Part shown: piece after piece, positions 2,380 through 5,382 of the stretch
Layout: every line of letters starts with the position of its first letter
Numbering within the stretch: the stretch's first letter is position 1
From: Escherichia phage vB_EcoM_G37-3
Sequence record: MK327941.1
DNA: 64,000 bases
Reading direction: 5' to 3' (one strand)
Translations under genes and position numbers: made by a program
The notes under the pieces: generated by a model
The model's database searches: none
What the model saw: only the letters and a program-made list of their open reading frames with translations
What the model was told of the DNA's origin: nothing

Positions 2380-3621
2380 ATGACTCATATTTTTACTGAA
2401 CTGTTGCGGGAATCTACTTCCTCAGTAGCTAACCAGACAGCGCGACCGCAACTATTATCATTAACTCGCGCGGTAAACAACCTGATTTTCTCTGATCTGG
2501 TAGCAATCCAGCCAACGGATCAACCAGTATCTGCATTGTACGGCCTACGTTATCTTAATCATGATGGTCAGATGACTTTCCGAACTGCTGCAACCTACGG
2601 TGGCGCGGTTGGTGATCGCACAGAGATTGAAGAGTTTTCAAAAGAAAAATCTTATGACGAAGGCGCACTATTCAAATCAGGCGATGTTGTATACGAAGTT
2701 GTGACCGCTGGTACAGTCGGTGAAGATGCCGAAACTCCAGAAGCTGCGATCTTTAAAGGCGTAATGACAAACAAAATTCGTTTCTATAGCGATTGTGCAT
2801 CGGTAGAATACTTTGAAGATAAAAACACCGAAATTGCGTCTACCTCTATGCAGTTTGACAAGTGGCAAGTTAATGTAGGTTCTCGTAAACTGAAAACCTC
2901 GTTCACCACTGAATTAATGCAGGATCTTGAGGCAAGCCAAATCAACTCTGAAAACTCTGTAATTGATCTTCTGGCTACTGTTGCTTCCGAAGAGATCAAC
3001 AAAGATATTATTCAGAAGTTGATCACTGTATCATCTCGCTATAAAATTAAAGGGATCACCCCTGATGGCGTACTTTCTCTCGTTAGCGTTCAGGATGCAC
3101 CAACACAAGCGCGTGAACTTTACCGCTATGCTTGCGAGATGAGCAATCAAATGTTGCGGACTTCCTCCTTTGCTGGTACATACGTTTTGGCGTCTTCTCG
3201 CGTGGTTGGCCTCCTGCAATCATCCGGTTGGATGGAAGAAACCGACAATGCTCTAAGCGAAGGTCGTCTGCGTTGCGGTCTGGAAGTGTACGCAGACACG
3301 ACAACACCTTTCGATTATATGCTCGTTGGTTGTAAGCACATGATCGGTGATATGGAGAGTGTAGGTTCTCTGTTCTACTCCCCATATACAGAAGCCGACG
3401 GCGCTGGCGCGTATAAGAGCGTAATTGACCCTAATAGCTTCCAGCATCATGTAGCTATTATGAATCGTTATTCACTCTCTGTCAACCCATACACATCAAA
3501 AGTTGATCAGGAAGAACACCAGGTCATCAAGGGTGACGATTGGGGTAAAATGGCTGGGCGTTCAGAAATGTCCTACATTTTAGGAATCGAACTGCCACCG
3601 CTTGAGATTGACAACGCTTAA
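2380..3621 (+). CDS. 24: Capsid vertex protein gp24
   Basis: Homology to T4 gp24 (ELLRESTS, KWQ..V.SRKLKT, MAGRS); start placed at internal ATG 2380 with upstream AAGG. Confidence 0.9.
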   Translation: MTHIFTELLRESTSSVANQTARPQLLSLTRAVNNLIFSDLVAIQPTDQPVSALYGLRYLNHDGQMTFRTAATYGGAVGDRTEIEEFSKEKSYDEGALFKSGDVVYEVVTAGTVGEDAETPEAAIFKGVMTNKIRFYSDCASVEYFEDKNTEIASTSMQFDKWQVNVGSRKLKTSFTTELMQDLEASQINSENSVIDLLATVASEEINKDIIQKLITVSSRYKIKGITPDGVLSLVSVQDAPTQARELYRYACEMSNQMLRTSSFAGTYVLASSRVVGLLQSSGWMEETDNALSEGRLRCGLEVYADTTTPFDYMLVGCKHMIGDMESVGSLFYSPYTEADGAGAYKSVIDPNSFQHHVAIMNRYSLSVNPYTSKVDQEEHQVIKGDDWGKMAGRSEMSYILGIELPPLEIDNA

Positions 3622-4209
3622 CTAAATATCTAACCAAGACAAGTCAGATCCGCCAAAGATTTTTTCGACGGCGGATCTATTTTCTTGATGATATAAGTTA
3701 AAACATGGTATCCCATGTCTACGGGCAACATAAACAGCAATTCGAGTTCCTCCCGAAACGATTCCATTAACTTCTTTCGCCCAGAATATCACACAATCTA
3801 CAGGGTCATCAAGTGTCTCACCTAAGACTTGAGCGACATTTCTAGAAAACAGATTTTGCATGTATAACGGTATAGAACGAGGATTATCATAAACGTGTTC
3901 TAATTCATCCATCGCCAGATTTTTTTGTTCTAAGGTTTGCCATGCAATCACATCATGACCGTTATGCTTGTGGTCATAAAACTTCCAATTTGGAATGAAA
4001 ATTTTTCTATAATCTGGATCGTAATACTTCATGAAAGCATTGTCCATACCGTAAGCCCCTCCAGAATGCGCTACAACGCGATTTTCTGACAATACCCTCC
4101 CAATGGTACTAGCCATTATCAAAATGTCGCTAGGCGCTTTTCTAGAGCCGATTAAAGCACATCTACGAAGTGGTTTTACTCCAAATAGATCTTGTAACTG
4201 GTCAAACAT
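3622..4209 (-). CDS. SLOG/DprA-like Rossmann-fold protein (hypothetical)
   Basis: 195 aa; ALIGSRKAPSDIL...VVAHSGGAYGMDNAF resembles the DprA/Smf nucleotide-binding core; GGAGG RBS before ATG. Confidence 0.4.
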   Translation of the reverse strand: MFDQLQDLFGVKPLRRCALIGSRKAPSDILIMASTIGRVLSENRVVAHSGGAYGMDNAFMKYYDPDYRKIFIPNWKFYDHKHNGHDVIAWQTLEQKNLAMDELEHVYDNPRSIPLYMQNLFSRNVAQVLGETLDDPVDCVIFWAKEVNGIVSGGTRIAVYVARRHGIPCFNLYHQENRSAVEKIFGGSDLSWLDI

Positions 4210-4324
4210 AATATTTCCTCCATAGAAAGCAATATCATACTACAAGTTAATAACAAATACAAGTATCCGCGTAGCGGAAGCGAGCACAGCGAGCAATAAA
4301 ACACTTCCAGTAATTGATTAATAA

Positions 4325-4540
4325 ATGTTCGAAACAAATTTTTATTATTCTATAAGATAAGTCTTCGTTTTGATCATAATTTAATCATACATGTAAAAAC
4401 TACACAAAAGGATATCGCTTCGCGAACTCCTACGGAGTATAACATTTGTGTTACAATATGTAGTGATTAATAATTAACCAAAGATACATTTTCTATGTTC
4501 TAAAGATCTTTCTTCGTTTTGATCATAATTTAATCAAACA
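4325..4540 (-). repeat. Two copies of a conserved intergenic element (core AAAACGAAGA...ATCTT.TAGAA.ATAGAAAAT)
   Basis: Direct repeats TCTTCGTTTTGATCATAATTTAATCA at about 4362 and 4512; third copy at 57204-57292 on the opposite strand. Confidence 0.6.
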
Positions 4541-4589
4541 GTATTAATATTGTGCACATGTAAACTAAAATTATGTTAATAACAGATAC

Positions 4590-4614
4590 AAAAAAGCCGC
4601 CCCGAAGGACGGCT
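4590..4614 (-). terminator. Rho-independent terminator
   Basis: GC-rich hairpin (GCCGTCCTTCGGGGCGGC on minus strand) followed by T6. Confidence 0.6.
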
Positions 4615-4622
4615 AATGTTAA

Positions 4623-5060
4623 TTATTTGTTGATAACGATCTGATTTCGGCGAATGGTAACATTACTCTTAGAGATGATCAGATCATCCGGCACTACGTT
4701 AGTTTTGTATGGTTGGAAGCGAACAAGCATCTGATTGCGTTTAGACCCTTCCTTAATCTTGATTTCCATCTGAATATTGTTGCCTACGTGAGCAACCGCA
4801 ATTTCACCTTTATTCTCATAGACCCACTTGCTGGTAACGTCTCCAGCAAAAGCCTTAATAACTTGCAATGCTTCGTCGTATGCGGTAGAGCTGTGAACTT
4901 TCAGAAGGCCAGCCGTAGCAAGACGGGAGCAGGTGATCGCCGGAGATTGCCAAACATCAACATTAATTTGCTCAATCAGAGTAACACCGCCCTGGTCAAC
5001 TGCTTTGAATGCTTCAAACATTGTCTTTTTCATTGCTACGTGGTTTTTACGGAATTTCAT
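4623..5060 (-). CDS. Hypothetical protein
   Basis: 145-aa ORF, RBS AGAGGTGA, terminator downstream. Confidence 0.6.
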   Translation of the reverse strand: MKFRKNHVAMKKTMFEAFKAVDQGGVTLIEQINVDVWQSPAITCSRLATAGLLKVHSSTAYDEALQVIKAFAGDVTSKWVYENKGEIAVAHVGNNIQMEIKIKEGSKRNQMLVRFQPYKTNVVPDDLIISKSNVTIRRNQIVINK

Positions 5061-5106: not shown

Positions 5107-5382
5107 TCAGGACATTGCCCGTTTGAATGCGTCCATTATAACAGTGTTATTTGGCTTGTCAACACGTTTTTGAACTTTATTTTTAAATTTTTTGTTGATG
5201 TGGTGTTTACGATAAACAACCTTTTCACGGTTGGCGTAAGCCTCTCGTGCATCTTTTACCATCAACCATGCCTTAGCCGCATCTTGTCCGCTGATCCCGC
5301 CAATCTTCTTAGCAATATCAACAAAATTAAGACCGTGGTCTTCGCGTAGCATGTAAACCATTAACGCTGTTTTCTTGTCCAT
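5107..5382 (-). CDS. Hypothetical protein
   Basis: Start at internal ATG 5382 (MDKKTALMVY...) forming an ATGA overlap with the upstream gene. Confidence 0.5.
   Translation of the reverse strand: MDKKTALMVYMLREDHGLNFVDIAKKIGGISGQDAAKAWLMVKDAREAYANREKVVYRKHHINKKFKNKVQKRVDKPNNTVIMDAFKRAMS

Follow-up and report, generated by a model that had tools for sequence, protein, structure and literature searches.

A stand-alone DprA-like SLOG protein encoded beside gene 24 of Krischvirus phages and the frequent pairing of its family with RNA ligase 2

RB49-type phages carry, tail-to-tail with the capsid vertex gene 24, a small gene whose product is labelled "DprA-like DNA recombination-mediator protein" in RefSeq (RB49p164, NP_891735.1). 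What kind of protein is this, and does it mediate recombination? The question reaches beyond one locus, as the functional name of a family present in more than 1,300 sequenced phage genomes has been transferred by weak homology. The family itself is already catalogued, by the RefSeq label and as PHROG 768, and computational surveys of viral SLOG and DprA-like proteins exist; we found no experimental, biochemical or genetic work on any family member in the searchable literature. We analysed a 64,000-nt stretch of Escherichia phage vB_EcoM_G37-3 (MK327941.1), hereafter the window, which is a Krischvirus (RB49/Phi1-type) genome.

The gene and its surroundings

The open reading frame listing of the window gives a minus-strand ORF at 3622-4209 that starts with ATG and encodes 195 residues. 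An original prediction made from the letters of the window had described this product by two strings, and the translation contains both. ALIGSRKA spans residues 18-25 (4135-4158), and VVAHSGGAYGMDNAF spans residues 45-59 (4033-4077). The gene was also described there as convergent with gene 24, and indeed its stop codon TAG (3622-3624) adjoins the TAA (3619-3621) of plus-strand gene 24 with zero spacer bases. Over 4.5 kb around the ORF, the identity is 99.2% with Phi1 and 98.6% with RB49. The locus is present in 58 Krischvirus records, and in every one of them the encoded protein is at least 95% identical. The ORF is a real gene, far beyond a chance reading frame. The order in RB49 (RefSeq) is gene 24, RB49p164, a hypothetical gene, 24.3, hoc, inh and uvsW; in the window, the gene upstream of the SLOG gene is the RB49p165 ortholog (4623-5060), whose 145-aa product matches no Pfam domain. 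The family profile found no second copy in the window, and the gene is an ordinary accessory gene in an accessory locus beside gene 24. The features of the locus are as follows.

3622-4209 (stop codon included), minus strand: coding sequence of the DprA-like SLOG protein, ortholog of RB49p164/NP_891735.1, PHROG 768
4217-4221, minus strand: Shine-Dalgarno sequence GGAGG, 7 nt 5' of the SLOG gene ATG
4210-4622 (413 nt), minus strand: non-coding leader/gap upstream of the SLOG gene
4436-4464, minus strand: weak sigma-70-like promoter candidate from a relaxed scan, ACTACA-17-TATACT with a TG extended -10
4595-4614, minus strand: intrinsic terminator of the RB49p165 ortholog, dG -14.8, z -4.5, followed by UUUUUU
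3646-3678: hairpin with a perfect 9-bp inverted repeat, AGATCCGCC...GGCGGATCT, within the last 60 nt of the SLOG ORF

The terminator at 4595-4614 is the upstream boundary of the SLOG transcription unit. Expression of the gene appears to be non-late, since the late-promoter sequence TATAAATA occurs nowhere on the minus strand of the window, a terminator stands upstream, and the gap offers the candidate at 4436-4464 as its only sigma-70-like promoter. A perfect sigma-70 promoter (TTGACA-16-TATAAT with TG) is found at 5135-5162 on the minus strand, inside the 3' end of the 24.3 ortholog, and presumably drives the RB49p165 ortholog.

The 413-nt gap has no credible ORFs in an otherwise tightly packed genome, and it is identical to RB49 at 411 of 413 positions, which exceeds the conservation of the flanking coding DNA. 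Two repeats lie within it: a direct one of 38 nt, whose copies at 4354-4391 and 4503-4540 are 89% identical, and one of 17 nt, TTGTATyTGTTATTAAC, with a copy (4246-4262 and 4575-4591) after each of two stem-loops. These stem-loop and repeat units are reminiscent of the PeSL promoter/stem-loop cassettes described for RB49 and Phi1 (PMC2839356). Searches of the gap gave no Rfam family, the sole hit being a sub-threshold TarB match (E 0.14), and no tRNA; a stable overall fold was not seen either (fold z-score only -1.26). The gap occupies the site that is held by rnlB in other T4-like phages.

The hairpin at 3646-3678 has a dG of -19.5 kcal/mol (z -4.4; none of 200 shuffles folds as well) and is followed on the plus strand by the T-rich ATTTTCTT. 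With no intergenic base between gene 24 and the SLOG gene, it is the sole plausible candidate for ending the late gene 23/24 transcript, and it would do so from within the convergent SLOG reading frame. At the other end of gene 24, the mechanical ORF starts at TTG 2314 and the RB49 annotation at ATG 2380; a late-promoter box TATAAATA at 2335-2342 lies inside the TTG-start extension, 38 nt 5' of ATG 2380, and favours the shorter annotated start.

Fold, family and conserved pocket

The protein had been read as a SLOG/DprA-like Rossmann protein on the strength of the ALIGSRKA-type motifs, a reading to be checked by profile search and structure prediction, and it held up in both. The sole strong sequence-level match is PHROG 768 (E 3e-60, 204 bits; residues 15-186 against profile positions 4-180 of 191). 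DprA models do match, below their cut-offs: Pfam PF02481 reached 22.2 of the required 29.6 bits and aligned to residues 15-60 only, and TIGR00732 (dprA) scored 14.3 against 191. The protein has no other Pfam domain. Among 130 diverse family members, PF02481 is matched by 91 at E<=0.01 (best E 8e-7), the 'SLOG cluster 4' family gives weak matches in 17, and LOG or YpsA/YAcAr models of Pfam match none. PDB chains of DprA match the family profile at E 2e-5 over its N-terminal half. Alignment of the family against the Rossmann domain of H. pylori DprA (HpDprA) by hhalign gave a probability of 96% over 131 columns, which cover the domain in full.

An AlphaFold2 model built from the 130-sequence alignment is confident (mean pLDDT 95.2, pTM 0.90) and shows a single alpha/beta domain from about residue 16 to about residue 185 of 195. 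Its nearest structures are SLOG members. Foldseek against the PDB ranked HpDprA first (E 1e-5), followed by Moco carrier protein, LOG, other DprAs, ShosA and TRPM LSDAT. In structure comparison, the figures were 13.2 for DprA 3MAJ, 12.7 for DprA 4LJK, 12.0 for Moco carrier protein, 11.7 for TM1055, 11.3 for both YpsA and ShosA, 10.5-11.0 for LOG enzymes and 9.7 for the ThsA SLOG domain with 3'cADPR bound. A viral structure library returned a first tier of same-family proteins (TM 0.6-0.8) and a distant second tier of cpYpsA (DUF2493) SLOGs from giant viruses and phages (TM ~0.40-0.46), so that neither a profile match nor the closest tier places the protein in the YpsA/YAcAr (cpYpsA, DUF2493) clade. 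The predicted fold is the Rossmannoid three-layer alpha/beta fold of the SLOG superfamily, with a Gly-rich loop and conserved polar residues lining one pocket. Judged from this model, the protein is a stand-alone, single-domain Rossmann protein of the SLOG (Smf/DprA-LOG) superfamily, with the DprA Rossmann domain as its nearest characterised relative by a narrow margin. It is not a canonical DprA, given its scores under the Pfam and TIGR cut-offs, its single domain and its lack of the accessory SAM and DML1/winged-helix domains.

The residues of the pocket are the most conserved positions among the 130 members. G21, G50, D56, R123, G153, G154 and T155 are invariant, and R23, P26, S49, A52, G54, P73, N124, Q127, G130, A158, A162 and N171 are conserved in at least 90%. 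Four family motifs, GSR, SGGAxGxD, RNxxQ and GGT, emerge from this pattern.

4141-4149, minus strand: GSR, residues 21-23; G21 invariant, R23 98% conserved in the 130-sequence alignment
4042-4065, minus strand: Gly-rich loop SGGAYGMD, residues 49-56, of the DprA-type SGxAxGxD; G50 and D56 invariant
3829-3843, minus strand: RNVAQ, residues 123-127; R123 invariant, N124 and Q127 96% conserved
3745-3753, minus strand: GGT, residues 153-155; invariant

By sequence, the first and third motifs look DprA-type, and GGT resembles the PGGxGT of LOG. The latter likeness bears on one possible function, that of a LOG/PpnN-like NMP N-glycosidase which would release ribose-5-phosphate from AMP or other NMPs and so feed PRPP, NAD+ or nucleotide synthesis. 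We regard this as improbable: in the LOG signature PGGxGTxxE, the catalytic Glu (T+3) corresponds to Ala158, which is 95% conserved and has no conserved acidic residue nearby, none of the 130 members matches the Pfam LOG model, and the motifs are DprA-type rather than LOG-type.

The DprA likeness bears on another. HpDprA relies on R52, R143 and R170 as key ssDNA-binding residues (PMC12961424), which appear as R48, R139 and R166 in the PDB chain numbering, offset by 4. By hhalign, R52 corresponds to R23 and R143 to R123, both conserved, and R170 to the variable Y160. The phage protein might be a DprA/ShosA-like dimeric ssDNA-binding Rossmann domain that coats or protects phage ssDNA and passes it to host RecA or phage UvsX, or shields replication/recombination intermediates from host sensors. 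DprA is the nearest relative, two of the three ssDNA-contacting arginines of HpDprA are conserved, the DprA-like ShosA binds ssDNA and RecA (PMC12961424), and such a role has been suggested for phage DprA/Smf copies (Iyer et al., 2021; PMC7824862). Against these points stand the scores under the DprA family cut-offs, the missing SAM and C-terminal DML1 domains and the loss of the third arginine. The protein of the window is also slightly acidic (pI 6.4, against a family median of 8.5), though neither pI nor charge tells the hypotheses apart. R23 and R123 are generic phosphate-binding positions of SLOG proteins; their conservation points to an intact pocket, and it would fit ssDNA and a free nucleotide ligand alike. 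We consider ssDNA binding of this kind less likely than not, also in view of the gene partners described below, yet it is the main and a serious rival of the reading proposed there.

Gene partners, fusions and possible function

Relatives of the SLOG protein were detected by tblastn in 1,330 of 50,697 phage records. Fifty-eight of these, the Krischvirus set, are at least 95% identical; the remainder are less than 60% identical and come from phages of Klebsiella, Pseudomonas, Aeromonas, Acinetobacter, Vibrio, Rhizobium and others. A profile search of 1.84 billion cluster representatives gave 4,319 clusters at E<=1e-3 and 2,728 at E<=1e-10, most of the matches being single-domain proteins of ~180 aa. 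The family spans at least eight viral families or subfamilies.

In T4, the convergent gene directly after gene 24 is rnlB, which encodes RNA ligase 2, and is followed by 24.2, 24.3, hoc and inh. The family profile found nothing in the T4 gene 24 locus, in agreement with the earlier remark that no counterpart is known at this T4 position. Serratia phage CHI14 and Klebsiella phage Roth67 have both genes, in the order gene 24, convergent SLOG gene and rnlB, with the rnlB stop and the SLOG start sharing TAATG. Overlapping rnlB-SLOG pairs are also present in Klebsiella phages Roth27 and KPN-12i at a different locus, the overlap in these four phages being TAATG or 11 nt, and the pair underlies further tblastn matches in CC31, Pet-CM3-4 and CP-p-KP-21072.

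L002 2994-4552, L007 2491-4046, L006 2453-4043 and L014 2435-4052: rnlB-SLOG pairs
L016 5637-6641: T4 locus, rnlB without SLOG

Krischvirus is the reverse of T4, with the SLOG gene kept and rnlB absent: tblastn with the T4 and CHI14 Rnl2 queries gave no match in either the window or positions 1-92,300 of RB49, and the gap at 4210-4622 holds no rnlB remnant. The rnlB-SLOG pair is therefore frequent and not obligatory, as each partner occurs alone, rnlB in T4 and SLOG in Krischvirus. That the overlapping pair recurs in several T4-like genera, with T4 and Krischvirus having lost opposite partners, may be a new observation. The overlapping downstream genes of Roth27 and SD2 were considered as a shared partner and rejected, being non-homologous and without Pfam domains. 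In Aeromonas phage 50AhydR13PP (L010 4046-5485), the SLOG gene overlaps the start of a gene beside gene 55 that encodes a 479-aa hypothetical protein without a Pfam match; at the equivalent gene-55 position of RB49 (L020, 28105-29574) lies the 489-aa hypothetical RB49p044, with no SLOG gene.

Other partners were sought among fused domains, in ten long proteins out of the top 150 cluster representatives. NADAR fusions account for four of the ten, a DUF4326 fusion for one, and a full RecJ (DHH-DHHA1-OB) with a C-terminal SLOG domain for another; the remaining four have no recognisable fusion partner. Two of the NADAR fusions, P0017 (1475 aa) and P0019 (1488 aa), combine the DprA-like SLOG domain with YAcAr and LDcluster4 SLOG domains and a C-terminal NADAR, an architecture reminiscent of polyvalent, possibly injected, counter-defence proteins. 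For the DprA-clade family in particular, such fusions to NADAR, DUF4326 and RecJ may likewise be previously unstated. NADAR enzymes strip ADP-ribose from guanine in ssDNA, and T4 gp30.3/AdfN applies this activity against DarTG1 (PMC11257639, PMC11125620).

AdfN (NADAR) and AdfM (Macro), as orphan antitoxins against DarTG, suggest a parallel in which the SLOG protein would be an orphan mimic of a ShosTA/PsyrTA-type DprA-like antitoxin, neutralising the effect of a PRTase toxin during infection. PADLOC does report ShosA/PsyrA matches to the protein. These are weak and span ~45 residues (about 15-61), that is, the shared Gly-rich motif only; the SAM domain and C-terminal helix of ShosA are missing, and DprA outscores ShosA. 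We hold an antitoxin mimic to be quite unlikely.

The gene neighbours were sampled in 16 lineages, picked by hand rather than systematically. In Pseudomonas phage IQPL (L008 1-4064), a Prs-like protein, a Nampt-like protein (NAPRTase family, E 8e-38) and a weak Macro match are encoded within 3 kb upstream of the SLOG gene; the last, a 'phosphatase', is a borderline Macro domain (E 3e-4, 21 bits against a cut-off of 22). This cluster looks like a NARP1-type NAD+ reconstitution module plus ADPr-processing genes. Nampt is encoded 1.3 kb downstream of the SLOG gene in Roth27 and KPN-12i. The T5-like phage AAS21 has the SLOG gene between a MazG-type NTP pyrophosphohydrolase and subunit A of an NAD-dependent DNA ligase, and in the Chaseviridae phage flopper it adjoins SSB. 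An uncultured T4-like contig (L017, 5543-6874), binned into a bacterial MAG, encodes an HTH protein, the SLOG protein and a RyR-domain protein (113 aa; PF02026, E 1.6e-9; 44 nt downstream of SLOG) at a gene-24-proximal locus. Phage RyR-domain proteins have recently been shown to block type I Thoeris by acting as sponges for gcADPR (bioRxiv 10.64898/2026.06.04.730250). KNP2 (L012 2685-4121) and LAh_8 (L015 2717-4028), which belong to unrelated phage lineages, share another arrangement: within a ribonucleotide-reductase/nucleotide-metabolism cluster, a PhoH-like ATPase gene has its 3' end overlapped by the SLOG gene, possibly a second recurrent gene pair. A Rhizobium phage has it overlapping a DUF72 gene, and in ZC03, SD2 and one Acinetobacter phage its neighbours are small hypothetical genes only. 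The RyR-domain and NARP-type neighbours of the family may also be new to the literature; the publications on NARP3, TadIV-1 and HIDEN-SEQ involve no SLOG or DprA-like proteins.

From this context we tentatively propose, with somewhat less than even confidence, that the SLOG protein is an accessory counter-defence or damage-reversal factor whose pocket binds, and perhaps processes, a ribose-phosphate moiety of the NAD+/ADP-ribose/AMP type. The pocket would hold the ribose-phosphate unit of such a ligand, which could be a soluble immune signal, an NAD breakdown product, or the same unit carried on nucleic acid that is single-stranded or nicked. The protein, expressed before the late genes, would then sequester or process the ligand, possibly via N-glycosidic cleavage; as no acid equivalent to the LOG Glu is present, hydrolysis is put forward only as a possibility. 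It would work beside ligases, Macro/NADAR enzymes and NAD+-reconstitution enzymes, and not as a RecA/UvsX loader. The NADAR and DUF4326 fusions and the NARP-type, Macro, RyR-domain and NAD-dependent ligase neighbours favour this proposal. Viral SLOGs fused to Macro, NADAR or DUF4326 have independently been predicted to process ADPr derivatives (Iyer et al., 2022; PMC9503650), those SLOGs being mainly YpsA-like and thus of a different clade from the DprA-clade phage SLOG. Set against it are that DprA, the nearest relative by sequence and structure, binds ssDNA; that the RecJ fusion and the SSB and ligase neighbours suit nucleic-acid binding equally, and so support the DprA/ShosA-like alternative; and that several sampled contexts hold small hypothetical genes only. 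That alternative in turn leaves the NADAR/DUF4326 fusions and the NAD-salvage neighbours unexplained, and T4-like phages already have UvsY/UvsX. RB49 encodes UvsX, and we take Krischvirus to have UvsY as well, as part of the T4-like core genome, so a further recombination mediator would be less needed. RB49 also encodes the macrodomain protein Tk.4 (AdfM-type) and ModB.

As contextual signals, the rnlB pair, the fusions and the RyR/NARP-type neighbours make the 'recombination mediator' label doubtful. A wider claim, which we offer with more hesitation and think rather doubtful as a whole, is that DprA-clade phage SLOGs form a hitherto uncharacterised counter-defence/damage-reversal class for an ADP-ribose/AMP moiety, coupled to Rnl2 in many T4-like phages, and that the mediator label is wrong. 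The target would be either an NAD-derived immune signal in solution or nucleic acid whose ends or bases carry ADP-ribose or an adenylate. If this is true, the NAD+/ADP-ribose arms race would gain a new protein class, and the long-enigmatic T4-type RNA ligase 2 could receive a pathway partner.

Comparison with known systems

The SLOG domain of ThsA, the 3'cADPR sensor of type I Thoeris (PDB 7UXS), belongs to a SIR2-fused bacterial defence protein and is more distant from the phage protein than DprA, Moco carrier protein, YpsA or LOG. The viral YpsA-like/YAcAr (DUF2493) SLOGs, like the phage protein, stand alone, are in some cases fused to DUF4326 or NADAR, and have been implicated in counter-defence (PMC9503650; 10.1101/2025.06.06.658234). 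A phage protein annotated as Smf/DprA, ORF83, inhibits Salmonella Avs3; it is a predicted LOG-like AMP binder with DUF4326-fused homologues in marseilleviruses (EVADES preprint, 10.1101/2025.06.06.658234). Its R-to-T spacing is 23 (R89 to T112), compared with 32 (R123 to T155) in the phage SLOG family, and the marseillevirus SLOGs fall in the distant second structural tier; ORF83 thus probably belongs to a different SLOG subfamily, set apart by published motif spacing and by that tier. It is a precedent for anti-defence activity in a stand-alone phage SLOG and no evidence for the DprA-clade family.

LOG phosphoribohydrolases (PDB 5WQ3, 9US2, 1WEK) share the superfamily and the pocket position with the phage protein, whose R and GGT positions are those of the LOG R(K) and PGGxGT motifs; the complete PGGxGTxxE with its catalytic Glu is found in LOG and not in the phage protein. 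ShosA/PsyrA (PDB 8ZVA) has an N-terminal SAM domain, an extra C-terminal helix, an adjacent PRTase toxin gene and RecA binding, whereas the phage SLOG gene has gene 24 and the unrelated 145-aa ORF as neighbours, and no PRTase toxin.

Closest is the DprA/Smf Rossmann domain (H. pylori 4LJK/4LJR/5MLL; R. palustris 3MAJ), on which about 130 of the 195 residues superpose and about 65 do not. DprA/Smf adds SAM and DML1/winged-helix domains, both absent from the phage protein, in which the DprA SGS is replaced by GGT and R170 is not kept; DprA is found in competence regulons and the phage family in lytic phages. With PHROG 768 and the RefSeq 'DprA-like' entries nothing differs: they are the same family, and the name they carry is a homology label.
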